Below, piece after piece: positions 8,992 to 37,043 of a stretch of DNA of 64,000 nucleotides. Under the pieces are notes generated by a model. That model saw only the letters and a list, made by a program, of their open reading frames with translations. It searched no databases and was not told the DNA's origin. Within the stretch, counting starts at the first letter, position 1, and each line of letters begins with the position of its first letter. The DNA comes from a bacterium (GTDB lineage: Bacteria; Patescibacteriota; Minisyncoccia; Phycocordibacterales; UBA6899): the NCBI GenBank assembly GCA_043756865.1, contig JAYUQG010000024.1:91259-155258 (forward strand). Direction: 5' to 3'. The position numbers and the translations under genes are program-made.

Positions 8992-9638
8992 CTATGTCAG
9001 ACAAACCCCCAGCAAAAGGACCACCAAAAGCAGCAGTAGGAGCGCCAAGCGGAAACAAGATATTTGCGGAGGTTGGAGGTATTCTCATAGCACTCCTCGT
9101 GTTTCTTCCAATCTTAAGCTCGCTTGCGGGGTCGCTCGGATTTCTTGGAGTGGTTGGTGACACGGTGGCTTCTGTTTTCTCTTATGTAAAGATGCTCGCT
9201 ACGGTTATTTCAATGGTTGCATTGATTATTGCTGTCTATTCGTTTATACGTATTTCAGAAATTGCCGCTGAGGAAACAAAGAAGCTTGGGCTCGCGCTCA
9301 ATTGGACAAGTGAACGAAAGCAGAAGAATGCACGTTGGGAGCGCGTAGAGACATACATGACTTCGCTGAATTCCTCTGACTGGAAAATTGCGATTCTTGA
9401 GGCTGATAACATTCTCGACCAAGTAGTAGAACGGATGGGCTACAAGGGGACCACGCTTGGGGAGCGCATGAAGCATATCGAAGCAAGTGATTTCCCGTAT
9501 CTTGAGGACGCATGGACTGCACATAAGACAAGAAATGCGATAGCGCATAAAGGGACTGACTATGAAGTATCCCGCAGTGATGCGGAGCAAACCATCAATA
9601 TCTATCACAGAATTTTTAAGGAGTTGGGGTATTTGTAA
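8988..9638 (+). CDS. hypothetical membrane protein
   Basis: The start overlaps the gatA stop (ATGA). It has an N-terminal Lys/Pro/Ala-rich tail and 2 TM helices. No family was recognised. Confidence 0.6.
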   Translation: MTMSDKPPAKGPPKAAVGAPSGNKIFAEVGGILIALLVFLPILSSLAGSLGFLGVVGDTVASVFSYVKMLATVISMVALIIAVYSFIRISEIAAEETKKLGLALNWTSERKQKNARWERVETYMTSLNSSDWKIAILEADNILDQVVERMGYKGTTLGERMKHIEASDFPYLEDAWTAHKTRNAIAHKGTDYEVSRSDAEQTINIYHRIFKELGYL

Positions 9639-9646
9639 AGCCCAGT

Positions 9647-10756
9647 TTATTCTGCCCATGGACTCGCCAATGGTTCGCCTACAAAAACACCTTGTGCAGG
9701 AAACGCAACGCTTTTCCAGTATGACTCAATCAGCGTCTCTCCTTGAGTGTAGTGAGTAATCACTATTTGTGGGTCAGGAAATTTTTTTTTCAGCGCGTAC
9801 GGTTCGCTTACTGTGCCGTAACTCCCTGTTACTCCAGCTTCAATAAATTCAAGTATGCTCATTTGCGAAGTGTCAGTCAGCATTCCACCAAATGAGGTTA
9901 GGTGGTCTGCTACTGCCCCATTGGGAAATTTGTTTGACGAAATGTTGGGGACCTTGGTTAGACCCTGAAAATAAAAGAGTGCATCGGTAGTATTAGAAAT
10001 GTAATTTTCTGAGGATGCTTTTGTTGATGTGGCACTCTCGGGTTGCGCAGAAAGAAGTTTCACGTGCACTTGCTGGCTAATTGCATGCCCAAGCATCGAT
10101 TTTGAATAATTATTTGCACGCATGCTTCTTATTTGATCTGATGTTTTCATAATGTACGCACTCCCAAATGGTTGTGAATTGTCAGAGGCGACCCCCCGCT
10201 CAATTAATTTTTTTACGCTCGAGACTGATTTTCCCGCGAGCATCATTGATGGCCTAAACCCAAAATCTGTATATGGTGCCAGAGACAGAGAATTATAATA
10301 GGGAAGTGCATCGGGCACATTCCGAGGATCAACGCACGCCATATCGTTGTACCCGAGAGATATTGCGGAGGTAATTCCGTTGCAATTAACGCGTGAGGGG
10401 TTTGTCCACGCAACGGCAATAATCTGAACTGTCTTTGGCAATGCAGCGTTTACTTCCTGAGATAATGCACCGAATTCCTCAGCAGTTAATTGATTTTTTA
10501 GGGGGAGGCTAACATGGACAATATTTTCATTCGGTATACCCCTTTTTGTTTGGTAGTACCATCCAATCTCGATACTTTCGGGGTCATTTTTGTTAATAAC
10601 AATTCCGGTGTTTTGACTGGTTACTTCCCTGTGAAACGTGAGCAATTTCTTTACTGGGGAGATTGTAACCCCACCTTCACTTCGGAAATGTCCAACAAAG
10701 TAGGTACTTACAAACATATAAGCAAGGACAAAAAGAAATATTTCTTTTCTAGGCAT
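9647..10756 (-). CDS. secreted hypothetical protein, possibly TIGR03790-like
   Basis: ATG at 10756 gives MPRKEIFLFVLAYMFV (signal anchor). The segment GIVINKNDPESIEIGWYYQTKRGIPNENIVHVSLP resembles the TIGR03790 N-terminus as I recall it. The tracked ORF start at 10777 is a TTG. Confidence 0.55.
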   Translation of the reverse strand: MPRKEIFLFVLAYMFVSTYFVGHFRSEGGVTISPVKKLLTFHREVTSQNTGIVINKNDPESIEIGWYYQTKRGIPNENIVHVSLPLKNQLTAEEFGALSQEVNAALPKTVQIIAVAWTNPSRVNCNGITSAISLGYNDMACVDPRNVPDALPYYNSLSLAPYTDFGFRPSMMLAGKSVSSVKKLIERGVASDNSQPFGSAYIMKTSDQIRSMRANNYSKSMLGHAISQQVHVKLLSAQPESATSTKASSENYISNTTDALFYFQGLTKVPNISSNKFPNGAVADHLTSFGGMLTDTSQMSILEFIEAGVTGSYGTVSEPYALKKKFPDPQIVITHYTQGETLIESYWKSVAFPAQGVFVGEPLASPWAE

Positions 10757-11058
10757 GCATACAGAATAGCATAGCAAGAAAGCAGGCTTAGCCTAAGGGA
10801 ACTCTCGGCTACCGCCGCGGGTGATATTCAATCTCGACGACTTGATAATGGATATCCTTTCTTCAGCAGACGGGACTCTAGCATAAGAGGCGCAACACCC
10901 ATTTCCAATTTTCAGAACGAGACTCTGTCGCGAATATTTTGCTTGCCGCCGAGCGCAAAATTTCTCGACCCCAGCTCGTGGTTTCGCCTGCTGACGAAAC
11001 ATCGCTCCGCTTTTCGAGTCCCTCGTTGAGTGCGGCAGCGCACTCAACACCGCCGTGC

Positions 11059-11080
11059 AAAAATACCACCTTACGGTGGC
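11059..11080 (-). terminator. rho-independent terminator closing the tRNA operon
   Basis: The minus strand reads gccacc-gtaa-ggtggt followed by attttt. Confidence 0.65.
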
Positions 11081-11092
11081 TTTTTGTATTTG

Positions 11093-11166
11093 CGCGGCGG
11101 ACGGGACTCGAACCCGCAACCTCCCACGTGACAGGCGGGTGCTCTAACCAGTTGAGCTACCACCGC
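11093..11166 (-). tRNA. tRNA-Asp (GTC); CCA not encoded
   Basis: Hand-folded cloverleaf: GCGGTGG acceptor, anticodon loop CTGTCAC, T-loop TTCGAGT. Confidence 0.85.
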
Positions 11167-11195
11167 AAATATTATTTTCTGGCCACCTTGACCAG

Positions 11196-11272
11196 TGGTG
11201 TCGACGGGAGGGAACGATCCTCCGACCTCGGGCTTATGAGTCCCGCGCTCTAACCAACTGAGCTACGTCGAC
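11196..11272 (-). tRNA. tRNA with CAT anticodon (elongator Met or Ile2); CCA encoded
   Basis: Acceptor GTCGACG/CGTCGAC and anticodon loop CTCATAA. It has an atypical T-loop ATCGTTC (A54, T58) and an A31-G39 mismatch. Confidence 0.75.
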
Positions 11273-11399
11273 ATATAAACATGCGTGCTCCAGTCACACC
11301 AATGAGCACAGTGGATTTATAGCATATTCTGTCTCAAAATCAAACTTGGATGTCATTTGCATGCGGTTAGGAATTAATCACCAGTCCTAAGTTCACAGA

Positions 11400-11519
11400 C
11401 AGGACTCGGTCACGAGTTACTAAGTCTTTTGGTGCGAAGGCCACCAAAAGCCCAAGTACTCCCGACCCCGACTCGCCCGTCTCACAAGGCTTCGACATGG
11501 CTCCGTCTTTCGATTCCTG
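11400..11519 (-). repeat. copy Y of the structured repeat family (see 36030-36186), inside the tRNA operon spacer
   Basis: The minus strand reads caggaatcgaa...cttttggtg-gccttcg-caccaaaag-acttagtaactcgtgaccgagtcctg. The 3' 26 nt match 36152-36178 apart from one mismatch and one 1-nt indel. Confidence 0.6.
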
Positions 11520-11552
11520 ATGAAAGTGCCATTGGGCGCTTTTTTGTAATTG

Positions 11553-11623
11553 TTGCGGGGACAGGAATCGAACCTGTGCCTGAAGGTTATGAGCCTTCCG
11601 AGCTACCGCTGCTCCACCCCGCT
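11553..11623 (-). tRNA. initiator-like tRNA-Met (CAT); CCA not encoded
   Basis: Sequence AGCGGGGTGGAGCAGCGGTAGCTCGGAAGGCTCATAACCTTC... is close to E. coli tRNA-fMet. It has an unpaired 1:72 position (A-A) and A11:T24, but only two G-C pairs next to the anticodon loop. Confidence 0.8.
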
Positions 11624-11672
11624 ATATTCAATAGTTCCTTGTCCGCATGACTAAGGAAGTGATGATTTCGGC

Positions 11673-11701
11673 ATTATAAGCAATAGAGCCATTTTTCGCA
11701 A
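11673..11701 (-). promoter_or_regulatory. sigma70-like promoter of the tRNA operon
   Basis: The minus strand reads TTGCGA-17 nt-TATAAT, about 45 nt upstream of the initiator tRNA. Confidence 0.5.
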
Positions 11702-11748
11702 GGACTTGCGTAGTGGGCGCAAAACGATAAATCCGATATGATGGAACA

Positions 11749-12369
11749 ATGAATTTGTTCTCACATATTGTGCATTCTCCACTCATAAATATCTCCCTCG
11801 GTTTTATGCTTTCTATGGTATGGGTAATCTTTGCATTTTCACACGTACAGGCATGGCAATCGACGGGCGAATTCGCGCTCCTCGCATTCTGCCTTTCGGA
11901 GACTTTGCAGGCAATGTTTTTTTTGTTTCGTAAGGTTCCCGAAACAGTATCTGTCGACCCCTTTGACTGGCTTGTTGCAGGAGGGGGAACTTTTGCGCCA
12001 CTGCTTTTTCGTCCGGGGGGAGAGGTGCTGTTTGCCCATGGCGACAAAATATTGCTTATTGGCGTATTTTTGCAAATTGCCGCATTAATTTCTTTGAATA
12101 GGAGTTTTGCAATTGTTGCTGCCAAGCGCTCGGTGAAAACAAAAGGCATGTATAGGATTGTGCGCCATCCTATGTATGCGAGTTATATATTCCTTTTGTT
12201 TGGCTACATACTGTTCAACGCCTCAATCGTCAATGTTTTTTTGCTTATGATGGCGTTTCTGTTTATGTATCTGCGGATTGAACAAGAAGAAAAGCACTTA
12301 CTGCAGGATTCGCTCTATCTTGCCTTCACAAAAAAAACAAAGTGGCGACTGATTCCTTTCGTGTATTAG
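11749..12369 (+). CDS. isoprenylcysteine carboxyl methyltransferase (ICMT/PEMT) family membrane methyltransferase
   Basis: Motif GMYRIVRHPMYASYIFLLFGY...EEKHL is present in a multi-TM protein. Confidence 0.75.
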   Translation: MNLFSHIVHSPLINISLGFMLSMVWVIFAFSHVQAWQSTGEFALLAFCLSETLQAMFFLFRKVPETVSVDPFDWLVAGGGTFAPLLFRPGGEVLFAHGDKILLIGVFLQIAALISLNRSFAIVAAKRSVKTKGMYRIVRHPMYASYIFLLFGYILFNASIVNVFLLMMAFLFMYLRIEQEEKHLLQDSLYLAFTKKTKWRLIPFVY

Positions 12370-12379
12370 GAGAGAGGAA

Positions 12380-12408
12380 TTGTAAAATAGTGTTGTATCA
12401 TGTATATT
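12380..12408 (+). promoter_or_regulatory. sigma70-like promoter of the tRNA-Thr pair
   Basis: TTGTAA-17 nt-TATATT ends about 30 nt before the first tRNA. Confidence 0.45.
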
Positions 12409-12438
12409 CTCGGTACTGTGAATTGATTCGCGTTTTAT

Positions 12439-12514
12439 GCCGTTTTAGCTCAGCTGGTAGAGCATTTCCATGGTAAGGAAAAGGTCCCCGGTTCGATTCC
12501 GGGAAACGGCTCCA
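12439..12514 (+). tRNA. tRNA-Thr (GGT); CCA encoded
   Basis: Acceptor GCCGTTT/AAACGGC, anticodon loop ATGGTAA, T-loop TTCGATT. Confidence 0.9.
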
Positions 12515-12537
12515 TGCTAGTATCTCGCTACTAGTTT

Positions 12538-12610
12538 GCCGCCTTAGCTCATCTGGTAGAGCAACGGTATCGTAAATCGTAGGTGCCCAGTTCGAGTCTG
12601 GGAGGCGGCT
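12538..12610 (+). tRNA. tRNA-Thr (CGT); CCA not encoded
   Basis: Acceptor GCCGCCT/AGGCGGC, anticodon loop ATCGTAA, T-loop TTCGAGT. Confidence 0.9.
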
Positions 12611-12613
12611 CAA

Positions 12614-13087
12614 ATGAATTCCTCGGCAAATAATCCGCGTGTGGGTATCGGGGTCATGATATTTCGTGACTTTCCTGCGTACGCAGGTGGAACTGTAGTC
12701 AAAAAAATATTACTAGGAAAACGAAAGAGTAAGCTTGGGCAGGGCGATTGGTCGTTTCCCGGCGGACACCTCGAAGCAGGGGAGTCCTTCGCTACGTGCG
12801 CAATTCGCGAAACTCAGGAAGAGACGGGAATAGAAATAACAAATATGCAATTTCAATTATTGGGAAATATTCCCAACACGTTTTCGGCGCATTATGTCCA
12901 GATTGCATTCACGGCGGATTGGAAGTCCGGTGAGCCTACAGTGATGGAACCGGAGAAGTGTGAACGCTGGGAGTGGAGTACGCTAAATGACTTACCTGAA
13001 CCACTGTTTGTACCAACGCGGATGATGATTGATGCATGGAAAGAGGGAATACATTTTTTAGATAGTAAGCAAAAAAGTAATATTTAG
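12614..13087 (+). CDS. NUDIX hydrolase
   Basis: Nudix box GGHLEAGESFATCAIRETQEETGI is present. Confidence 0.85.
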   Translation: MNSSANNPRVGIGVMIFRDFPAYAGGTVVKKILLGKRKSKLGQGDWSFPGGHLEAGESFATCAIRETQEETGIEITNMQFQLLGNIPNTFSAHYVQIAFTADWKSGEPTVMEPEKCERWEWSTLNDLPEPLFVPTRMMIDAWKEGIHFLDSKQKSNI

Positions 13088-13092
13088 TATTT

Positions 13093-13118
13093 AAAAAGCC
13101 GCGCAATGCGCGGCTTGT
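13093..13118. terminator. bidirectional hairpin terminator between convergent genes
   Basis: aaaaa-agccgcgc-aat-gcgcggct-t. The T-run is on the minus-strand reading. Confidence 0.6.
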
Positions 13119-13120
13119 GG

Positions 13121-13612
13121 CTATGTTCTGAGAACTCGTGGAATATCCCCCGAGTAAATACGCCTGAGAATCAGGGGAATGAGCAATGCGTTACTGAGAA
13201 GAAAAAGCACAGTGCCCAACCATCGGCAGAGATCGCCGATACTCACGATGTTTACGCCCCCCTCGAAGGGGTAGTCAAGCCATTTGCCCCACCACCGAAT
13301 TGCGGAACCGATGGCTCCACGCGGAATCTCGTCTTCCCAATTCGGAAAGTCGATACGCACTCGGTCTGCAAGTATGAGCAGTTTGCCATCATCTACGAAC
13401 TGGCGAGGTGTTCCTGCGTTGGTCGTGATAATTCCGGGTATATCGACAATGACCGGCATGACCCCGTCATTTACTTCCACCACTATGCCGTTCATCACAA
13501 CTCCCCATGCATTGAGCGCAAGCCCAATGACGACAAGGAGAGTGAGCGCGGTATCAACGAAACCCCATTTGGTTCGCTCGCGACGAAGATTCAGTTCTTG
13601 AGAGAGTTCCAT
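13121..13612 (-). CDS. hypothetical membrane protein
   Basis: It is a 163 aa ORF with TM helices at both ends. It is chosen over the plus-strand shadow (tracked ORF 13106..14227), whose first ~210 codons look non-protein-like. Confidence 0.55.
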   Translation of the reverse strand: MELSQELNLRRERTKWGFVDTALTLLVVIGLALNAWGVVMNGIVVEVNDGVMPVIVDIPGIITTNAGTPRQFVDDGKLLILADRVRIDFPNWEDEIPRGAIGSAIRWWGKWLDYPFEGGVNIVSIGDLCRWLGTVLFLLSNALLIPLILRRIYSGDIPRVLRT

Positions 13613-13741
13613 GTGTACTCCTTAGAATGGAAAGATGTGTCAGCCAAGTATAATAATAGTACAAAAAAACTGAATTGTCAAACACGCAAGTCAGTAACAA
13701 GGAGGACATGCAGTGTTCGTCTAGGTATTTGCTATACTCGC

Positions 13742-14227
13742 ATGATGAATACGTACACCGTGCGCACCGCAACAAAAAAAGATATAGACGCGCTTATTCC
13801 ACTGCAAAAAGAGATGGCAAAATATCACCACGCGCTCGATTCCATCTGGAATAAGGGAGCAAAGGATGATTCTGTTTGGCGTGAAATGCTTCTTGGGTTT
13901 TTTAAAAGAGGAAAAAATTTTTCCTTTCTCGTGCTTGAGTGTAATGGAAAAATAGTTGGTTATGCGAACGCAGAAATAAAGGTCGCGAGTCCCGCATATG
14001 CAGTCAAGTTGCTCGGGCATATAGGTAGTGTGTATGTGCAAAAACCCTATCGTCGCTCAGGTCTTGCAAGTATGGCAGTTGACCACTCCATGGACTGGTT
14101 TAAGAAAAATAAGGTGACATGGGTTACGCTTCAGGTTGATACAGACAATCCTTTGGGCACTAAAACGTGGAAGAAACTTGGATTTGAGGAGTGGCGCTTG
14201 GTGTTACGCAAGAAGCTACGTACATAG
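13742..14227 (+). CDS. GNAT family N-acetyltransferase
   Basis: ATG at 13742 gives MMNTYTVRTATKKDIDALIPL. The acetyl-CoA motif is VYVQKPYRRSGLASMAV. Confidence 0.8.
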   Translation: MMNTYTVRTATKKDIDALIPLQKEMAKYHHALDSIWNKGAKDDSVWREMLLGFFKRGKNFSFLVLECNGKIVGYANAEIKVASPAYAVKLLGHIGSVYVQKPYRRSGLASMAVDHSMDWFKKNKVTWVTLQVDTDNPLGTKTWKKLGFEEWRLVLRKKLRT

Positions 14228-30150: not shown

Positions 30151-32034
30151 ATGACACAAGACACCGCACTTACAATTATGAAAACCGGGGCAAATATTTT
30201 CCTCACTGGTGAGCCGGGGTCTGGAAAAACACATACCGTGAACGCATATGTGCGGTACCTGAAGGAGCATGGTATTCAACCTTCCATCACTGCGTCGACG
30301 GGGATTGCCGCAACACATGTCGGAGGTATGACGATTCACTCATGGAGCGGTATTGGGATACGTCGCGCACTCTCCGAATATGACCTTGATGCAATGGCCT
30401 CGAACGAGGGGCTGGTCCGCCGACTCGCGAAAGCCAAAGTGCTTATCATCGACGAAATCTCGATGCTTGATGGCACGGTGCTCGACATGGTCGACCAAGT
30501 CTCGCGCACGATAAGGATGAAACAAGAACCCTTTGGCGGGCTACAGGTGATTTTGGTGGGTGACTTCTTTCAGCTCCCGCCGATTGCAAAGCAAGGCGAA
30601 CGTGCGCAGTTTGCGTTTGATTCAAAGGCGTGGAAACTCGCCAATCCAATTATTTGCTATCTTTCTGAACAGCATCGCCAAGAAGACACGGCGTTTCTCT
30701 CGACCTTGGGTGCGATACGTCGCGGGGAATTGGAGGACAGTGTCTTTGAGTATATTGGTGAGCGTAACGTGGCACCGGGTGAACACCCACTCGATATTCC
30801 CCAACTGTACACACACAATATCGACGTCGACAAAAAGAACACCATAGAACTAGAAAAGCTCACCAGCGCACCTGTGGTCTTTCTGATGGAAACAAAGGGG
30901 AGTACGGGGCGGGTAGAACAGTTGGTAAAAGGATGCCTCTCGCCAGAGGAATTGGTCTTGAAGGAAGGTGCGTCTGTCATGTTTACCAAGAACAGCTTTG
31001 ATTCAGGTTATGTAAATGGCACACTCGGTACGGTCATCGGGTTTGATGCTGACAACGGATTTCCTATCGTGGAAACACGTGATGGCGATGAGATAACGGC
31101 GTTTCCGTCGGAGTGGGCAGTGGACGATAGTGGCAAGGTCCTCGCGACCATCACGCAAGTGCCACTACGACTCGCATGGGCTATCACGGTGCACAAAAGC
31201 CAAGGACTCTCGCTGGACGCGGCGGTCATGGACCTCTCACGTGCGTTTGAGTACGGTCAGGGGTATGTCGCACTCTCACGTGTTCGTGAATTCGCTGGTC
31301 TGCATATTCTTGGTATCAACCAGCGCGCGTTTGAGGTACATCCACTCGTCCTTGAACGCGATCAAGCATTCCGCGAACGCTCCGACGATGCAGAGCGTGG
31401 TTTTGAAGACATGCCACCGTCTGATCTCCTGGCACTCCACAATAATTTTATTACTGCTATGGGGGGAACGATTCATGCCGTCGCGCTTGATGAAGCGACA
31501 AAAGCCCCGAAGATTTCTACATATGAACAAACACTCGCACTGGTCGCAGACGGAAAAACTCTTGCAGAGATTATCGCACTTCGCGGGATGACCGAGGGTA
31601 CAATTGTGAAACATCTCGAAGAGCTCGCGCTTTCGGGCAATCTTCCGCCCCTCGAGATGGCACAATTCACAGGACTCGAGCAGCGTGGGCTCGACGATAT
31701 ACGGGAAGCCATCCTCGGCGTAGAAGGAGGTTACTTAAAGCCTATTTATGAAGCGCTCGATGAAGCCTATTCTTATGAAATGATTCGACTTGTGCGCTTA
31801 GCCACAGGCGCTCTGGCAAAGCGTAAAGAAGAGAGCACAGAGCAAAAAGTCGCTCGTAAAGAACCAGCCACTGCGAAGCCAGACAATCTTGGTGCCAAAT
31901 GGTCAACGGAAGAGGAGTCACGTCTGAGAGAAATGTTTCAATCGGGAATGAAGACTGCGCACATCGCCCGCGAGCTCAAGCGTCAATCGGGAGGTATCCG
32001 TGCGCGACTCAAGAAGCTCGGGTTGCTTGAATAG
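30151..32034 (+). CDS. Pif1/RecD-like SF1 DNA helicase with a C-terminal helical/HTH-like extension
   Basis: Walker A GEPGSGKTH, Walker B LIIDEISML, and motifs VGDFFQLPP and ITVHKSQGLS are present. Confidence 0.85.
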   Translation: MTQDTALTIMKTGANIFLTGEPGSGKTHTVNAYVRYLKEHGIQPSITASTGIAATHVGGMTIHSWSGIGIRRALSEYDLDAMASNEGLVRRLAKAKVLIIDEISMLDGTVLDMVDQVSRTIRMKQEPFGGLQVILVGDFFQLPPIAKQGERAQFAFDSKAWKLANPIICYLSEQHRQEDTAFLSTLGAIRRGELEDSVFEYIGERNVAPGEHPLDIPQLYTHNIDVDKKNTIELEKLTSAPVVFLMETKGSTGRVEQLVKGCLSPEELVLKEGASVMFTKNSFDSGYVNGTLGTVIGFDADNGFPIVETRDGDEITAFPSEWAVDDSGKVLATITQVPLRLAWAITVHKSQGLSLDAAVMDLSRAFEYGQGYVALSRVREFAGLHILGINQRAFEVHPLVLERDQAFRERSDDAERGFEDMPPSDLLALHNNFITAMGGTIHAVALDEATKAPKISTYEQTLALVADGKTLAEIIALRGMTEGTIVKHLEELALSGNLPPLEMAQFTGLEQRGLDDIREAILGVEGGYLKPIYEALDEAYSYEMIRLVRLATGALAKRKEESTEQKVARKEPATAKPDNLGAKWSTEEESRLREMFQSGMKTAHIARELKRQSGGIRARLKKLGLLE

Positions 32035-32061
32035 CTATCCCGAGTTATGCACACCCACCCC

Positions 32062-32089
32062 TTGCGTAATTCTACACAGGGTGTATATT
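32062..32089 (+). promoter_or_regulatory. sigma70-like promoter of repeat unit A1
   Basis: TTGCGT-16 nt-TATATT has the same architecture as the tRNA promoters in this window. Confidence 0.45.
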
Positions 32090-32095
32090 TCATTC

Positions 32096-32150
32096 ATCGA
32101 GACGATACGTCGTCTCAATTTAACAAAGCCTGTCACCCGACGGGCTTTTT
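32096..32150 (+). ncRNA. candidate ~55 nt sRNA, copy 1 (inside repeat unit A1, 32043-32154)
   Basis: Downstream of the promoter lies a 7-bp hairpin gagacga-tacg-tcgtctc (32099-32116). It is followed by the linker aatttaacaaa and a terminator gcctgtc-accc-gacgggc + tttttt. There is no ORF, and both neighbouring genes end or point away. Confidence 0.45.
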
Positions 32151-32177
32151 TACGCCTCGATAAAGTATTAAGTATTT

Positions 32178-32226
32178 CAGCGCGAAGCGCAGAGATAGTG
32201 AGTCCTCGAGCGACAACGCCAAATAG
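32178..32226 (+). repeat. repeat B, copy 1
   Basis: cagcgcgaagcgcagagatagtgagtcctcgagcgacaacgccaaatag is about 80% identical to 33667-33714. Confidence 0.55.
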
Positions 32227-32262: not shown

Positions 32263-33591
32263 TTAAGCTACTTCGTCGATTTTCTCAAGCGGGCGATCAT
32301 TGATTGCACGTTCAAGTGAACTCAAACGTTTGTAGATTGAGAGCATTTCGACAATAGTCGGCCAATTGAGGACCAAATATTGAAAAGAACTTTCTACTCT
32401 TCCGAATGCGCGCACAATCTGCTGCATGACTCCAAGGGTGAATCCTGCAAGTATCGCCTCTTTGGAAAGCAGGGTTGGTGCGAGTGCGATGTAGGGAACG
32501 AGTGCACCCGCCTGTAGATAGCTATACCGCACCATGTTGAAGTACATGTAGTGAAAGTACATCCGAAAGTAGTTTGTTCTCACGTGACCAAACAGCTCAC
32601 GCAATGTCTTCGGTTGTGCCCGAGTTTCGTCCTCTTCGCCGAATACTAGCTCCTTGCGGTAAGCGTGCTCCACTCGTTGGTTGTGGAATTTCAATGTCGG
32701 CAGATAATAACCCGTCAGTGCGAGCACAATCGTACCGAAAACAGACCAGCAGACTGCAATAATCACCAATCCATGGGCGATCGGTCCGATGACGGGTATC
32801 TCCGAGACAAACTTCGTCGAGAGCATCCAAAGAATCGGCAAGAACGCAATGAGCGTCATCACCGCATCAAGCAGTCCCGCACCCAATCCTTCCATGATGT
32901 CTGCAAAACGCATCGTGTCGTCTTGAATACGTTGGGACGCTCCTTCGATGTGACGGACTTTGCTCCATTTCCCAGTATAGTACTCGTTCATCGCGGTGCG
33001 CCACCGGAAGTTGTAGTGCTGGATGAAATAGTTTCCCAGCGTTCTCACAATCACAAACACCGCTGCAATGGTGAAAAAGGTGGCCAGACGTCCGTAGTAC
33101 TCAGTATTTTCGATAGTTCCGGGGTTCGCAAACATGGTTTGAATCATGTTGTAAAACCCACCGAACCATTCGTTAATCATGACATCGAGTTGCACCTGAA
33201 ACCACGTGAAAAAGATAATCACAGCGGAACCAAGAAGCGACCACTTCAGCCATTTGTGTGAACTACAGAAGTACCAGCAGGCAATAAATATTCCGTAGCA
33301 AGGGATGAGGAATTGGTATGCCCAAAAAGTCACCGCGCTTCCGAGCGCACTTATCTGGGATTGCACCAACTTTACTCGCTCGGGGTCTGTCTTTGCACCG
33401 AATCGCGCCGCTTCCTTTTGTAGCGTTTCGAGTAATCCGTAGTCGAGTTGAGCAAAGCCGAACCATTGACCAACGGAATACATTTGACCTGTTTGCTCTC
33501 CTAATGTGAACCAAAACACCAAGCAGGCAAGTGCCCATATCACAAATGAGCCAAAGAAGAGGAGCGGCCTCGGAAAGAAGGAATTAAACAT
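32263..33591 (-). CDS. sbmA: SbmA/BacA-family peptide (antimicrobial peptide/cofactor) transporter
   Basis: It is collinear with E. coli SbmA as I recall it. Examples: MFNSFFPRPLLFFGSFVIWAL vs MFKSFFPKPGTFFLSAFVWAL, FRWRTAMNEYY, RHIEGASQRIQDDTMRFA, FHNQRVEHAYRKELV, YFHYMYFN and SIYKRL. Confidence 0.9.
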   Translation of the reverse strand: MFNSFFPRPLLFFGSFVIWALACLVFWFTLGEQTGQMYSVGQWFGFAQLDYGLLETLQKEAARFGAKTDPERVKLVQSQISALGSAVTFWAYQFLIPCYGIFIACWYFCSSHKWLKWSLLGSAVIIFFTWFQVQLDVMINEWFGGFYNMIQTMFANPGTIENTEYYGRLATFFTIAAVFVIVRTLGNYFIQHYNFRWRTAMNEYYTGKWSKVRHIEGASQRIQDDTMRFADIMEGLGAGLLDAVMTLIAFLPILWMLSTKFVSEIPVIGPIAHGLVIIAVCWSVFGTIVLALTGYYLPTLKFHNQRVEHAYRKELVFGEEDETRAQPKTLRELFGHVRTNYFRMYFHYMYFNMVRYSYLQAGALVPYIALAPTLLSKEAILAGFTLGVMQQIVRAFGRVESSFQYLVLNWPTIVEMLSIYKRLSSLERAINDRPLEKIDEVA

Positions 33592-33666
33592 TGGGGGACC
33601 CCTTTTGTGTCGAGAACTTTGTCTGTCAAAAGTCTAAAGGAAGGCGCAAATATAGCAACTGCATTA

Positions 33667-33714
33667 AGCGCGAAGCACCCGGATAGTGAGTCCGCGAGCG
33701 GTAACGTCAAATAG
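33667..33714 (+). repeat. repeat B, copy 2 (directly abuts unit A2)
   Basis: Sequence is agcgcgaagcacccggatagtgagtccgcgagcggtaacgtcaaatag. Confidence 0.55.
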
Positions 33715-33739
33715 CCCCCAAGTTATCCACACCCACCCC

Positions 33740-33767
33740 TTGCGTAATTCTACACAGGGTGTATATT
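33740..33767 (+). promoter_or_regulatory. sigma70-like promoter of repeat unit A2
   Basis: The sequence is identical to 32062-32089. Confidence 0.45.
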
Positions 33768-33773
33768 TCATTC

Positions 33774-33828
33774 ATCGAGACGATACGTCGTCTCAATTTA
33801 ACAAAGCCCGTCTCTGACGGGCTTTTTT
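33774..33828 (+). ncRNA. candidate ~55 nt sRNA, copy 2 (inside repeat unit A2, 33721-33831)
   Basis: Copy 2 is identical to copy 1 through the hairpin and linker. Its terminator stem is gcccgtc-tct-gacgggc, and the differences from copy 1 keep pairing (C-G in place of the T-G wobble). Confidence 0.45.
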
Positions 33829-33856
33829 ACGTCTCCACAACCGCCACAGCTTTTTC

Positions 33857-35888: not shown

Positions 35889-35918
35889 GCGTAGGTTAGT
35901 TGGATTGATATAACATAT

Positions 35919-35989
35919 TGCGGGTTCGTCTAATGGTAGGACGTTACCCTCTGGAGGTAAATATTGGGGTTCGAGTCCCTGACCCGCAG
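35919..35989 (+). tRNA. tRNA-Gln (CTG); CCA not encoded
   Basis: Acceptor TGCGGGT/ACCCGCA has the U1-A72 pair typical of bacterial tRNA-Gln. The anticodon loop is CTCTGGA and the T-loop is TTCGAGT. Confidence 0.85.
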
Positions 35990-36002
35990 TTACCACACAA
36001 AA

Positions 36003-36029
36003 ACACTCTGCCAAGAGTGTTTTTGTTTT
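36003..36029 (+). terminator. rho-independent terminator of tRNA-Gln
   Basis: acactct-gcca-agagtgt followed by ttttgtttt. Confidence 0.75.
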
Positions 36030-36186
36030 GTGGTAACTCGCGGGTCAGGGACTCGAAATGCGTAAGGTGGTATACAAGACGAGCGAAGCGAGTGCTTGTC
36101 ACCGAGCCGGGGTCGAGAGCACTTTGTAGTTCGGTGGCCTTGCGCCGAAATACTTAGTGACTCGTGACCGAGTCCCTGACCCGCAG
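36030..36186 (+). repeat. copy X of a structured repeat family with 16-bp terminal inverted repeats derived from, or identical to, the tRNA-Gln 3' end
   Basis: gcgggtcagggactcg (36040-36055) is the exact reverse complement of cgagtccctgacccgc (36169-36184). An internal hairpin ttcggtg-gccttg-cgccgaa lies at 36130-36149. The unit is homologous to 11400-11519(-) and, at its ends, to 37154-37331. Confidence 0.65.
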
Positions 36187-36199
36187 CAATGTCGCAACG

Positions 36200-36221
36200 T
36201 CACCCTTTTTGGGTGATTTTG
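36200..36221 (+). terminator. hairpin plus T-run directly after repeat X (plus strand)
   Basis: tcaccc-ttttt-gggtga followed by tttt. Confidence 0.45.
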
Positions 36222-36392
36222 CTATGGGTGAAAATTGTTTGTGAGGGTGATGTTTTTCTCCCCCCGCTCAATTATGCCAATATATGTGCGGTGCACCTCG
36301 GCGCGCTCTGTGAGTTTTTCTTGGGAAAGCTCGCGTTTCAAGCGTTCCTCGCGGACTCGTTTGCCGAATTTGGTTAGCAACTGTTTATTCAT
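36222..36392 (-). CDS. XRE-family helix-turn-helix transcriptional regulator (56 aa; below the ORF-track cutoff)
   Basis: My translation of the minus strand is MNKQLLTKFGKRVREERLKRELSQEKLTERAEVHRTYIGIIERGEKNITLTNNFHP. This is the classic HTH_3 pattern (LSQEKLAE...RTYI..IERGE.N.T). Confidence 0.7.
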   Translation of the reverse strand: MNKQLLTKFGKRVREERLKRELSQEKLTERAEVHRTYIGIIERGEKNITLTNNFHP

Positions 36393-36452
36393 ATCTACAT
36401 GTACAGTGTAGGAAGTTGCCTACCATGGTTCTACATACTAAAGTTAGCAAAT

Positions 36453-37043
36453 ATGGACAATAATGCGGTGATATTTATACTAGTTGTTTTTGTTGTTTTT
36501 ATTGTGATGAAGATGTTTTTTCAAAAAAAGACACACACAAACACTCATTCAAAAAGCGGACTAATCCTTTCAATCATCTCGCTTTTGTTACCATTCGCGA
36601 AGGAGTTTTTAGAAAAGAGACAGGAGGAAAAGAAGTATATTACAGAAGACGCTCGATATAGTAAAAAACAATATTTCATGACGACCGCTGAGCATCATGT
36701 TTTCGACCAGTTGTTAAAAATAGCAGGGGAGAAATATCACGTCTTTCCGCAGGTGCACTACAGTAAAATTATGTACGCCGAGGGACAGCAGAATTTCCAT
36801 AATCCGTGGTTCAACAAGATAGACCGAAAGTCCGCAGACTTTGTACTTTTTGACAAGCACGACATTTCTCCTGTTTTGGTGATTGAGCATGACGATAAGA
36901 CTCATAATCGTAAAGACCGAATTGAAAGGGACGATTTTATTGACCACACACTTGAAAAAAGTGGAATTTCAATTGTGCATGTTCGACCATTCGCGACCGA
37001 AGAGGAACTGAAGAAACTACTCCAAGTAAAAATCAGTATATAA
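36453..37043 (+). CDS. DUF2726-domain (restriction-endonuclease-like fold) protein with N-terminal TM helices
   Basis: The pattern ...FMTTAEHHVFDQLLKIAGEKYHVFPQVHYSKIM...KSADFVLFDKHDISPVLVIEHDDKTHNRKDRIERDDFI...GISIVHV matches DUF2726. ATG at 36453 is the chosen start. Confidence 0.65.
   Translation: MDNNAVIFILVVFVVFIVMKMFFQKKTHTNTHSKSGLILSIISLLLPFAKEFLEKRQEEKKYITEDARYSKKQYFMTTAEHHVFDQLLKIAGEKYHVFPQVHYSKIMYAEGQQNFHNPWFNKIDRKSADFVLFDKHDISPVLVIEHDDKTHNRKDRIERDDFIDHTLEKSGISIVHVRPFATEEELKKLLQVKISI

Follow-up and report, generated by a model that had tools for sequence, protein, structure and literature searches.

An element with two copies of its neighbour's tail lies behind tRNA genes of Patescibacteria

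The stretch of DNA considered here, 64,000 nucleotides (nt) from a patescibacterium of the lineage UBA6899 (assembly GCA_043756865.1, contig JAYUQG010000024.1, positions 91,259 to 155,258; henceforth the window), carries three copies of a structured element, termed U, each behind a tRNA gene. The element takes its ends from that tRNA: its closing helix, P1, joins an inverted copy (a') and a direct copy (a2) of tRNA positions 56-65, and a2 often runs on to position 73 or 74. U folds on the tRNA-sense strand as a three-way junction, whose other helices, P2 and P3, are kept by compensatory change. A preliminary description of this region had drawn attention to an unusually long spacer between an initiator tRNA and a second tRNA with the same anticodon (CAT), within what was thought to be one operon. 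The anomaly is real, and the general direction, towards a structured RNA on a tRNA transcript, was right, but the unit was wrong: what is of interest is a tRNA-tail element behind many tRNAs throughout the phylum, rather than a long spacer within an operon. Tentatively, and with a little less than even confidence, we regard U as an insertion or recombination element that is non-autonomous, has the T-loop and 3' end of tRNA genes as its target, and is co-transcribed with the tRNA.

The spacer had been said to contain a copy of a repeat, Y, and the match is there (BLAST, 11402-11475 against 36175-36103, 82% identity over 74 nt, E = 8.5e-15), with both copies oriented alike towards the tRNA concerned, tRNA-Gln or the initiator tRNA. 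Y is one helix, P3, of the larger element, which is tied to the upstream tRNA. The sequences GGGGTCGRGA and CGYGACNGAGTC each occur three times without mismatch in the 64 kb, always behind a tRNA (initiator Met, Asp, and Gln), and the three copies follow a common plan (Table 1): tRNA, hairpin, a' (the reverse complement of the T-loop and the 3' strand of the T-stem of the copy's own tRNA), a core of about 100 nt that stands where a T-loop would be, and a2. The element measures about 125-190 nt and begins 32 nt (U_iMet), 68 nt (U_Asp), or 56 nt (U_Gln) after the end of its tRNA; in the same order, a2 is identical to tRNA positions 56-65 at 9, 8, and 10 of the ten, and a' is complementary at 9, 8, and 10. 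The feature is therefore not peculiar to the inter-tRNA spacer of one operon, as had been supposed, the same element being found also behind terminal tRNAs. Two hairpins reported from the spacer, one of 9 bp at 11426-11450 and the other AGTCCT/AGGACT at 11383-11406, are present as well. Recent copying of Y within the genome was considered and rejected, for P3 of U_iMet is 80% identical to that of U_Gln and 79% identical to copies in other genomes. A variant of P2 found in U_Gln, GGUAUACAAGACGAGCGAAGCGAGUGCUUGUC (36059-36108), shares 90% of its positions with copies behind Leu, Trp, and Gln tRNAs in metagenome-assembled genomes (MAGs) of Saccharibacteria and Parcubacteria, far above the conservation of neighbouring proteins between close relatives.

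The element extends well beyond the window. One genome per species was scanned for the exact pattern of two short motifs, which occurs at at least 119 genome loci; among the 121 matches listed, 61 lie within 400 nt downstream of the end of a tRNA on the same strand (mostly at 60-160 nt), with 15 isotypes represented. A covariance model, R1, built from aligned copies, finds in the window only the three copies (85.3, 82.2, and 78.3 bits, scores that are partly circular, as the three belong to the seed), the next match having 10.6 bits; copies outside the seed score 28-92 bits. Altogether, R1 makes 98 matches in 71 of the 92 loci searched, with at least 16 types of tRNA upstream, and gives no score at the 21 loci known by the pattern only (Actinomycetota, Acidobacteriota, Planctomycetota, and others). 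The positive loci come from Saccharibacteria, Moraniibacteriota, Kaiser-, Nomura-, Lloyd-, and Yonathbacteria, Paceibacterota/Parcubacteria, or unclassified MAGs, except for two MAGs labelled Bdellovibrionales (L056 and L112), whose cores are close to Moraniibacteriota copies and which are probably mis-binned. In the 71 loci, 74 tRNAs are followed by U on the same strand within about 130 nt, 30 by another tRNA, and 47 by neither; tRNAs for Gly, Ala, and Phe never have U. The element is absent from Rfam 15, which at E up to 10 returned only tRNAs and chance matches for 9000-14000, 11273-11552, and 35985-36200, and from the searchable full-text literature, where the nearest topic is the group I introns at position 35/36 of Patescibacteria tRNAs. 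We know of no close precedent for a closing helix derived from the target.

The letters of P1 track the tRNA: T-loops reading CAACU, CGAUU, and CAAUU are matched by both a' and a2 in copies that the model found beyond the motif scan. Over 80 tRNA/element pairs, a2 agrees with tRNA positions 56-65 at 8.7 of 10 and with positions 66-73 at 5.7 of 8 (2.6 of 8 for unrelated tRNAs), the latter figure being bimodal, with the segment either intact or decayed. The identity begins at C56 and stops at 73/74, and at least 16 of the 18 positions are identical in 48 of the 80 copies. Where the T-stem contains a G.U pair, a' complements the 3' strand by Watson-Crick pairing 16 times and has the letters of the tRNA's 5' strand 4 times; it is thus an inverted copy rather than the remnant of a duplicated tRNA, and a degenerate tRNA paralogue was rejected on this ground. 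Where a2 and the tRNA differ (L101 and the copy behind tRNA-Val of L083), a' follows a2, hence the conserved interaction is that between a' and a2; in the Val copy, P1 pairs with itself and not with its own tRNA.

The preliminary description had proposed a comparison with Rfam and a prediction of structure. The former, as noted, gives no match to the spacer element, but the element does fold better than its shuffles: U_iMet reaches -49.8 kcal/mol (z = -2.9; -37.7 on the opposite strand) and U_Gln -77.1 kcal/mol (z = -7.2; -61.8 on the opposite strand), while U_Asp reaches -56.8 kcal/mol on the tRNA strand and -48.0 on the other. A hand-drawn structure was tested on an alignment of 58 copies (A2) against shuffled and slid controls. 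It comprises P1 (a':a2, 10 bp), an AAA joiner, P2 (a 3-bp RNC/GNY helix, a GGAG/CGAG loop, and a variable hairpin), a GGG joiner, and P3 (GUCG/UGAC, GAG/CUC, and a long variable hairpin). The fraction of cells paired is 90.8%, compared to 72.4% in shuffled and 31-40% in slid controls; 369 cells are changed on both sides, compared to 130 and 34-77; and the covariation score is 0.486, compared to 0.152 and 0.055-0.103. The motifs by which copies were selected do not vary, for that very reason, and carry no weight in this test, the support coming from P1, P2, and the outer part of P3. In the paired columns, G-U outnumbers A-C by 106 to 19 (49 to 19 without one invariant pair), which identifies the folded strand as the tRNA-sense strand. 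An RNA from the opposite strand was rejected on this count and for its weaker folds in all three copies. RNAalifold chose instead to pair the GGG joiner (J2/3) with CCY of a2, a choice set aside for its lack of compensatory change, its G-A and G-G cells, and the better fit of P1. An open reading frame (ORF) for 43 amino acids at 11367-11498 was set aside, as it overlaps helices in which compensatory change occurs. The tips of both P2 and P3 repeatedly carry mini-hairpins of the type GCGAAGC with tandem G.A on either side.

A three-way junction with purine-rich joiners (AAA and GGG) and a tandem G.A loop might call to mind a small catalytic RNA, either a self-cleaving ribozyme or an intron-like T-loop element that cuts or joins at 55/56. 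The boundary of identity with the tRNA falls exactly there, and the alternative pairings of a' (with a2 or with a1, the tail of the tRNA itself) would, one can reason, juxtapose U55 and the second C56. We nonetheless think catalysis very improbable, given that no ribozyme model of Rfam (hammerhead, twister, twister-sister, pistol, hatchet, hairpin, or HDV-like) and no intron model matches even at E = 10 on short stretches, that the nucleotides of the junction differ between core classes, and that the upstream tRNA is already complete and needs no splicing. Two specific candidates were examined and discarded. A hammerhead-like arrangement (GAAA after P1, UGACCGA before it) fails because GUCG/UGAC forms a helix, with GUCC/GGAC and CCC/GGG as its covarying counterparts; UGAC in CGUGACCGA has GUCG as its partner, leaving no unpaired hammerhead core of the form CUGANGA/GAAA. 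A group I intron finds no Intron_gpI match, and the upstream tRNAs are complete (62-67 bits).

In other classes of core, the 5' module is that of U (acceptor-complement, CUGC hairpin, a', GAA(A/G)G, and P2) but P3 is different. Class B has a core of the form GUGCCYAGAC ... GUCGARGGAG and class C a short hairpin of the type CCCUGUAAGGG; such loci include L123 3060-3230, L133 1600-1730, L024, L128 1705-1814, L060 1973-2129, L022 3806-3914, and L038 356-457. R1 scores these weakly (14-58 bits) or not at all, so that separate models are needed. At L104 155-400 and L092 498-770, U lies behind a degenerate tRNA tail, GGTTCGAGCAAAGGTTAGCAATTCACCA, with no intact tRNA detected; the tail overlaps the end of an apparent ORF (...GSSKG*), and the unit of L104 is in tandem.

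The recognition of U changes the reading of the spacer. ARAGORN and Rfam agree with the preliminary description on the order of the tRNAs on the minus strand (initiator-like tRNA-CAT, a second tRNA-CAT, tRNA-Asp), and the gap between the two tRNA-CAT genes is long and structured as claimed, measuring 279 nt (11273-11551). The initiator-like tRNA has a C1xA72 mismatch; the other two are 98-100% identical to their counterparts in relatives. The promoter TTGCGA-17-TATAAT (11701-11673) and the terminator hairpin (11080-11065) said to frame the cluster were both found by the consensus scan, and the site at 11673-11701 is 84% identical over 50 nt to the same position in the relative L123. A single operon, on the other hand, is doubtful, because the downstream tRNAs have a separate, conserved promoter (11343-11315). 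The simple promoter scan overlooked it, its second hexamer ending in A, but 11315-11343 matches L125 3132-3161, which precedes tRNA-Met/Asp, at 90% identity over 31 nt; in L125, a Lloydbacteria relative, the initiator tRNA is on the strand opposite that of tRNA-Met/Asp. In L133, a strong terminator comes after the initiator tRNA, and the same TTGATT-type promoter motif comes next. The site probably serves the second tRNA-CAT and tRNA-Asp as their own promoter, and the cluster most likely consists of two units, one running promoter, initiator tRNA, weak hairpin, U_iMet, and the other promoter, tRNA-Met, tRNA-Asp, terminator, U_Asp. The spacer is as long as it is because a U of about 125 nt lies directly behind the initiator tRNA and is followed by a separate promoter for the next two tRNAs.

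The hairpin between the initiator tRNA and U_iMet (hairpin T) was flagged by the terminator scan on the plus strand only (11522-11543, then TTTTTTG); on the tRNA strand, its stem has a C.A mismatch and only UUU follows, making it a weak terminator. Judged by eye, the interval between tRNA and a' holds an A-tract, hairpin, and T-tract in most copies of the family and none in roughly a third (a simple terminator detector flags 17 of 74, an undercount). U is very probably transcribed with its tRNA, since hairpin T is a poor terminator in that direction and about a third of the members have none. The preliminary description had supposed that any RNA encoded in the spacer would be both co-transcribed and released by tRNA processing. 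For an element on the sense strand, the first part is very probable, and release by processing of the RNase P/Z type is conceivable, on the ground that complete forms of U have an acceptor-like stem and a discriminator.

The same tracts invite the thought that U is a cis-acting end module of the tRNA unit, which forms 3' ends or blocks read-through or antisense transcription, for example through an alternative pairing of a' with the tRNA tail or a2. U always lies directly 3' of the last tRNA of a unit and in the same orientation, and it is usually joined to an A-tract/hairpin/T-tract able to terminate in both directions; in U_Gln, tRNA tail, trailer, terminator, and a' form one palindrome of about 40 bp. 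Of 81 nearest downstream genes, 28 converge on U (the other 53 being on the same strand, a split that led us to reject U as the leader of a particular gene). Still, a terminator has no use for a conserved junction of 100 nt, close to half of the tRNA units at these loci have no U, and a' follows a2 and not the tRNA where a1 and a2 differ (the two cases described above). Nor is the duplex of a1, T, and a' conserved: its internal loop in U_iMet is 17 nt on one side and 4 nt on the other, and many copies have an inserted hairpin. A role of this kind therefore seems to us quite unlikely. GC skew is positive across the whole window and yet U occurs on both strands, hence its orientation follows the tRNA rather than replication.

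Table 1. Copies of U in the window, the tRNA genes that precede them, and associated signals
Feature	Position	Strand	Basis or remark
Initiator-like tRNA-CAT	11552-11623	-	ARAGORN and Rfam tRNA, 62.2 bits
Source sequence a1 (initiator tRNA positions 56-73)	11553-11570	-	
tRNA-CAT no. 2	11196-11272	-	ARAGORN and Rfam
tRNA-Asp	11092-11166	-	ARAGORN and Rfam; 29 nt from tRNA-CAT no. 2
Promoter-like TTGCGA-17-TATAAT before initiator-like tRNA-CAT	11673-11701	-	consensus promoter scan
Hairpin T, between initiator tRNA and U_iMet	11523-11542	-	from sequence and scan
Separate promoter	11315-11343	-	from sequence; TTGATT (11343-11338), 16 nt, TGcTATAAA(T) (11324-11315)
Terminator T_Asp	11059-11085	-	hairpin and T-run at 11080-11065; terminator on both strands in scan
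U_iMet, three-way junction	11398-11520	-	R1 85.3 bits, E = 2.5e-21
U_iMet P1 5' strand, a' (inverted copy of tRNA 56-65)	11511-11520	-	
U_iMet P2 (preceded by J1/2 AAA)	11470-11507	-	
U_iMet J2/3 GGG and P3	11409-11469	-	repeat Y; tip is the 9-bp hairpin 11426-11450
U_iMet P1 3' strand, a2 (direct copy of tRNA 56-65)	11399-11408	-	9/10 identical
Decayed acceptor 3'-strand copy and 3' half of AGTCCT/AGGACT hairpin	11383-11398	-	acceptor copy 11391-11398, 3/8 identical
U_Asp	10916-11058	-	R1 82.2 bits
U_Asp acceptor-complement	11050-11058	-	
U_Asp CUGC-loop hairpin	11025-11049	-	
U_Asp P1 5' strand	11015-11024	-	
U_Asp P2	10973-11011	-	
U_Asp P3	10927-10972	-	
U_Asp a2	10917-10926	-	8/10 identical; acceptor part decayed
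Older-unit remnant, third tRNA-Asp tail fragment AGAGTCCCGTCTGC	10866-10879	-	from sequence
Older-unit remnant CCCGCGGCGGTAGCCGAGAGTTCCC	10797-10821	-	from sequence
tRNA-Gln(CTG)	35918-35990	+	ARAGORN and Rfam; a1 is 35972-35989
Bidirectional terminator T_Gln	35999-36024	+	
U_Gln, most complete copy	36040-36189	+	R1 78.3 bits
U_Gln a'	36040-36055	+	complementary to tRNA 56-72, one 16-bp helix
U_Gln P2	36059-36108	+	
U_Gln P3	36109-36168	+	
U_Gln a2	36169-36189	+	identical to tRNA 56-73 (18/18), plus C74
Second hairpin and T-run directly after U_Gln	36199-36222	+	from sequence

Beyond P1, the copies take several forms. In about 12, a run of 7 nt located 24-29 nt upstream of a' is perfectly complementary to the acceptor 3' strand, and between this run and a' lies a covarying hairpin, often with a CUGC loop (also seen in U_Asp), giving the shape of a mini-cloverleaf. 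In others a single continuous helix of 16-17 bp ends at the discriminator (U_Gln, with G73), and in still others there is P1 only (U_iMet). An acceptor-like stem with a discriminator is found in U_Gln and in the dozen or so mini-cloverleaf copies; U_iMet and U_Asp either lack it or have it in decayed form. Decay of the acceptor part affects about 30% of copies, among them two of the three in the window. Of the 48 well-preserved copies, a2 keeps N73 and C74 in 42. In the loci L001-L119, a C at position 74 is encoded by 83-89% of tRNA genes, with or without U, usually as N73-C-A, and full CCA is rare (13 of 150 of these Patescibacteria tRNA genes). CCA following a2 was considered as a sign of an RNA intermediate and dropped: it occurs in 7 of 48 copies and after the tRNA in 3 of 48, too weak a difference, and C74 is general in any case.

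These forms lend themselves to the main rival account, that U is a small RNA useful to the host, made by read-through, which mimics the acceptor/T-arm end of a tRNA. This gives a specific form to the idea of the preliminary description. RNase P would free the RNA at its acceptor-like stem, RNase Z or exonucleases would trim it behind N73, and its junction, with P2 and P3, would act together with some enzyme or factor that binds tRNA. The strong conservation of sense-strand structure through compensatory changes, even between orthologous copies, is what one would expect, as are the mini-cloverleaves, the continuous helices that reach to the discriminator, the retention of N73 and C74, the third of copies (by eye) with no terminator before them, and a P2 sequence 90% conserved across distant lineages. 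A generic handle for processing, however, would not need the tail of a particular neighbour. Moreover, the acceptor part is lost in a sizeable minority of copies, as just noted; some 40% of the terminal tRNAs of these loci lack U, as do all those for Gly, Ala, and Phe; U is lost or its core class swapped at orthologous sites; and most copies lie behind what appear by eye to be efficient bidirectional terminators. We judge this account rather unlikely as it stands, although it and the insertion reading do not exclude each other: an element that spreads at the ends of tRNAs may also make an RNA.

Comparison of orthologous sites speaks for turnover. The nearest relatives keep the order of genes (LigA, GatC, GatA, a 216-amino-acid protein, tRNA cluster, ICMT-like methyltransferase, two tRNA-Thr), and the methyltransferase is 57-59% identical between them and the window, yet around the cluster only the tRNAs, the two promoters, and one 25-nt remnant can be aligned. 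The preliminary description had suggested a search of related genomes for the same spacer, whose absence from close relatives would count against it. U is absent from the orthologous spacer behind the initiator tRNA in every relative recovered, all of them distant by the measure just given: the spacer without U is 140 nt in L123/L124 and 199 nt in L133, and in L125-L130 the arrangement is inverted. The U family itself is nevertheless conserved across the phylum. Behind tRNA-Asp, the window has a class-A core and the remnants at 10797-10879, L123 has three tandem, partly decayed units, one with a short hairpin in its core instead of P3, L133 has the same short-hairpin core as L123, and L125 has yet another sequence. 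The remnant CCCGCGGCGGTAGCCGAGAGTTCCC is 96% identical over 25 nt to the tandem units behind tRNA-Asp in L123 and 89% identical to L129. L128 shares 270 nt, letter for letter, with L125-L127 as far as the T-loop of tRNA-Thr(CGT); past that point the sequences are unrelated, the inserts differ, and the tRNA tail shows two base differences. An ORF of 361 amino acids in L062 lies between two full units, and in L035 a perfect copy of P3 and a2 recurs 1.7 kb downstream, beyond two ordinary genes. The identical cores of two copies in L083 can be due to gene conversion.

A side case is found at L125 4840-5230 (also L126, L127, and L128), where a complete tRNA-Thr(CGT) is bracketed by partial copies of itself, the leader and positions 1-19 about 95 nt upstream and positions ~20-73 about 150 nt downstream. 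The arrangement has the look of an insertion, in which a unit with an entire tRNA entered the D-loop of an older copy. At its end the insert has ACGATCTCGAA, and the unit behind tRNA-Asp on that contig closes with this motif as well. An Rfam scan of the L125 locus (E up to 1) returned nothing beyond tRNAs and chance matches.

A direct repeat that runs from the T-loop to the 3' end is, as Williams is said to have described in 2002, the classical identity block of elements that integrate into T-loops. One might therefore take the tail repeats for attL/attR scars of integrase elements that cross over in the T-loop, and U for an inert leftover. The span of the repeat, the tandem arrays with their decayed distal copies, and the serine-recombinase genes that abut other tRNAs in two of the loci would all fit. 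In relics, however, compensatory substitutions would not have preserved a three-way junction throughout a phylum, nor an inverted copy a' that tracks a2, and housekeeping genes normally adjoin U directly, with no integrase or phage genes between. IMG/VR holds no copies either: a search returned three matches to the pattern, none accepted by R1 and none with a tRNA, and an origin from phage or attP was rejected on this basis, the matches being due to chance. Inert scars are, in our estimation, scarcely a probable explanation.

If U is instead an insertion or recombination element of its own kind, each event would place a unit (tRNA tail, hairpin, a', core) at position 55/56. The insertion would leave the tRNA intact by restoring its tail, and the older copy of the tail (a2) would be pushed downstream, where only the part held in P1 would stay conserved. 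U would be transcribed by read-through from the tRNA promoter, and the folded strand, RNA or the equivalent single strand of DNA, would be recognised by a putative trans-acting factor. This reading accounts for the boundaries of the repeat at 55/56 and 73/74, the decay of unpaired a2, the arrays, and the breakpoint seen between strains. Several observations weigh against it. No precise pair of empty and filled sites was found, and the tandem arrays show no consistent pattern as to which copy is younger. There are no copies in the phage sequences of IMG/VR, and no recombinase, transposase, or reverse transcriptase is linked to U among 144 neighbouring ORFs. Compensatory change between the orthologous copies of L086 and L093, read from their sequences, resembles purifying selection at the level of the host. 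The weak points of the reading are the missing enzyme, the missing empty site, and the matching of a' and a2 to new types of tRNA, which is unexplained; the copies in which a' follows an a2 unlike the tRNA leave retargeting equally without explanation.

In a more far-reaching version, U would be a novel sort of genetic element bearing a guide, with a' and a2 forming a two-strand address copied from the T-arm, used for insertion at 55/56, and rewritten for each target. The user of the address would be either a putative trans-acting recombinase, with a logic like that of bridge RNAs, or the folded RNA itself. We extend little credence to this version. It may also be that a2 serves as a spare 3' piece (positions 56-73) for the repair of tRNAs cleaved in the T-loop.

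Neighbouring genes offer no partner for U. The two nearest ORFs downstream of each copy, 144 in all, were scanned against Pfam; no family was enriched beyond chance, and a linked protein was rejected as an explanation. The 25 commonest of the 151 Pfam families matched include no tyrosine integrase, no Y1 transposase, and no TnpB. Serine recombinases account for 2 of the 144, both abutting a tRNA other than that of U. These are large proteins (Resolvase, Recombinase, and Zn_ribbon_recom; L072 2586-4352 and L108 1780-3384), and their genes run a few bases into the 3' end of a tRNA that faces the other way and lacks U (Gly-GCC and His-GTG, respectively); they are likely integrated elements at the ends of Patescibacteria tRNAs.

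Several known systems resemble U in part. In the rtT/tyrT system, a structured unit with a copy of the tRNA 3' end lies downstream of the tRNA, can be repeated in tandem, and is processed from the tRNA transcript. U likewise lies behind a tRNA, carries a copy of its 3' end, and can be tandem, but rtT RNA (RF00391) is enterobacterial and confined to tyrT, has neither the inverted tail copy nor the three-way junction, and has an Rfam model that U does not match up to E = 10. With attL/attR repeats, CIMEs, and tycheposon remnants, U shares the direct repeat from T-loop to 3' end, the intact tRNA, the tandem arrays with decaying distal copies, and the strain-level breakpoint in the T-loop; it differs in its small size (125-190 nt), its inverted copy of the repeat, its phylum-wide fold, its presence at 16 or more tRNA types, and the lack of an integrase nearby. 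Derivatives of IS200/IS605 (PATEs) and the attC sites of integrons are also small and non-autonomous, with strand-specific structure, G.T(U) pairs, bulges, a fold conserved over sequence, and, in concept, a short pairing between guide and flank. In their case, though, one would look for a Y1 transposase, TnpB, or IntI, none of which was seen near U among those 25 commonest families, and, for PATEs, for an orientation tied to the lagging-strand template, whereas that of U follows the tRNA. The "guide" of U is 10-17 nt long and copied from its target.

If U is processed as the rival account supposes, there are parallels for this too. mascRNA and the t-elements of plant mitochondria are associated with non-tRNA RNAs released by RNase P/Z next to a tRNA-like fold. 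In plant tRNA-snoRNA dicistrons, a non-tRNA RNA is released by RNase P/Z from a transcript that bears a tRNA (PMC12045711). U would have in common with all of these a non-tRNA RNA on the same transcript as a tRNA, or next to a tRNA-like fold, but it has a core in place of the T-loop and an acceptor-like stem in only part of its copies. In the same phylum, group I introns interrupt tRNA genes at position 35/36 of the anticodon loop and match group I models (PMC13011429). They too are intervening RNAs associated with tRNAs and often escape annotation; U, by contrast, stands behind a complete tRNA and matches no intron model.

The remaining tRNAs of the window, by ARAGORN and Rfam, are two tRNA-Thr on the plus strand and the tRNA-Gln at 35918-35990. 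Following U_Gln and its second hairpin come a short ORF of the XRE helix-turn-helix type on the minus strand (~36230-36395, by eye) and then a DUF2726 protein (36399-37043); a PIF1-like helicase lies upstream (30151-32034), and there may be a small foreign island next to tRNA-Gln. Between them and the helicase, a gene of the SbmA/BacA family (32263-33591, minus strand) is flanked at 32039-32226 and 33664-33840 by direct repeats of 96 nt (97% identical), 51 nt, and 25 nt, in the order D1-D7-D5 on the left and D5-D1-D7 on the right. This looks like a repeat-bounded cassette, unrelated in sequence to U. An ORF of 376 amino acids with no Pfam match (9647-10777, minus strand) separates the gene for the 216-amino-acid protein from the tRNA cluster; at its position, relatives have nothing or a Band_7 gene.

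Patescibacteria have tiny genomes with little non-coding DNA, yet U stands behind about half of the tRNA genes in the loci sampled. It explains long "spacers" and spurious ORFs beside tRNAs in these genomes, and R1 is now available for its annotation. It also marks the T-loop as a breakpoint of recombination, one that can mislead assembly and the comparison of strains. If U is mobile, it would be an insertion element without protein, dependent on structure, that takes its closing helix from its target, and it would help explain why the tRNA loci of Patescibacteria are so rearranged and rich in fragments. If it is instead an RNA of the host, a new class of tRNA-end mimic would be produced from tRNA transcripts, in organisms whose RNA processing is pared down.

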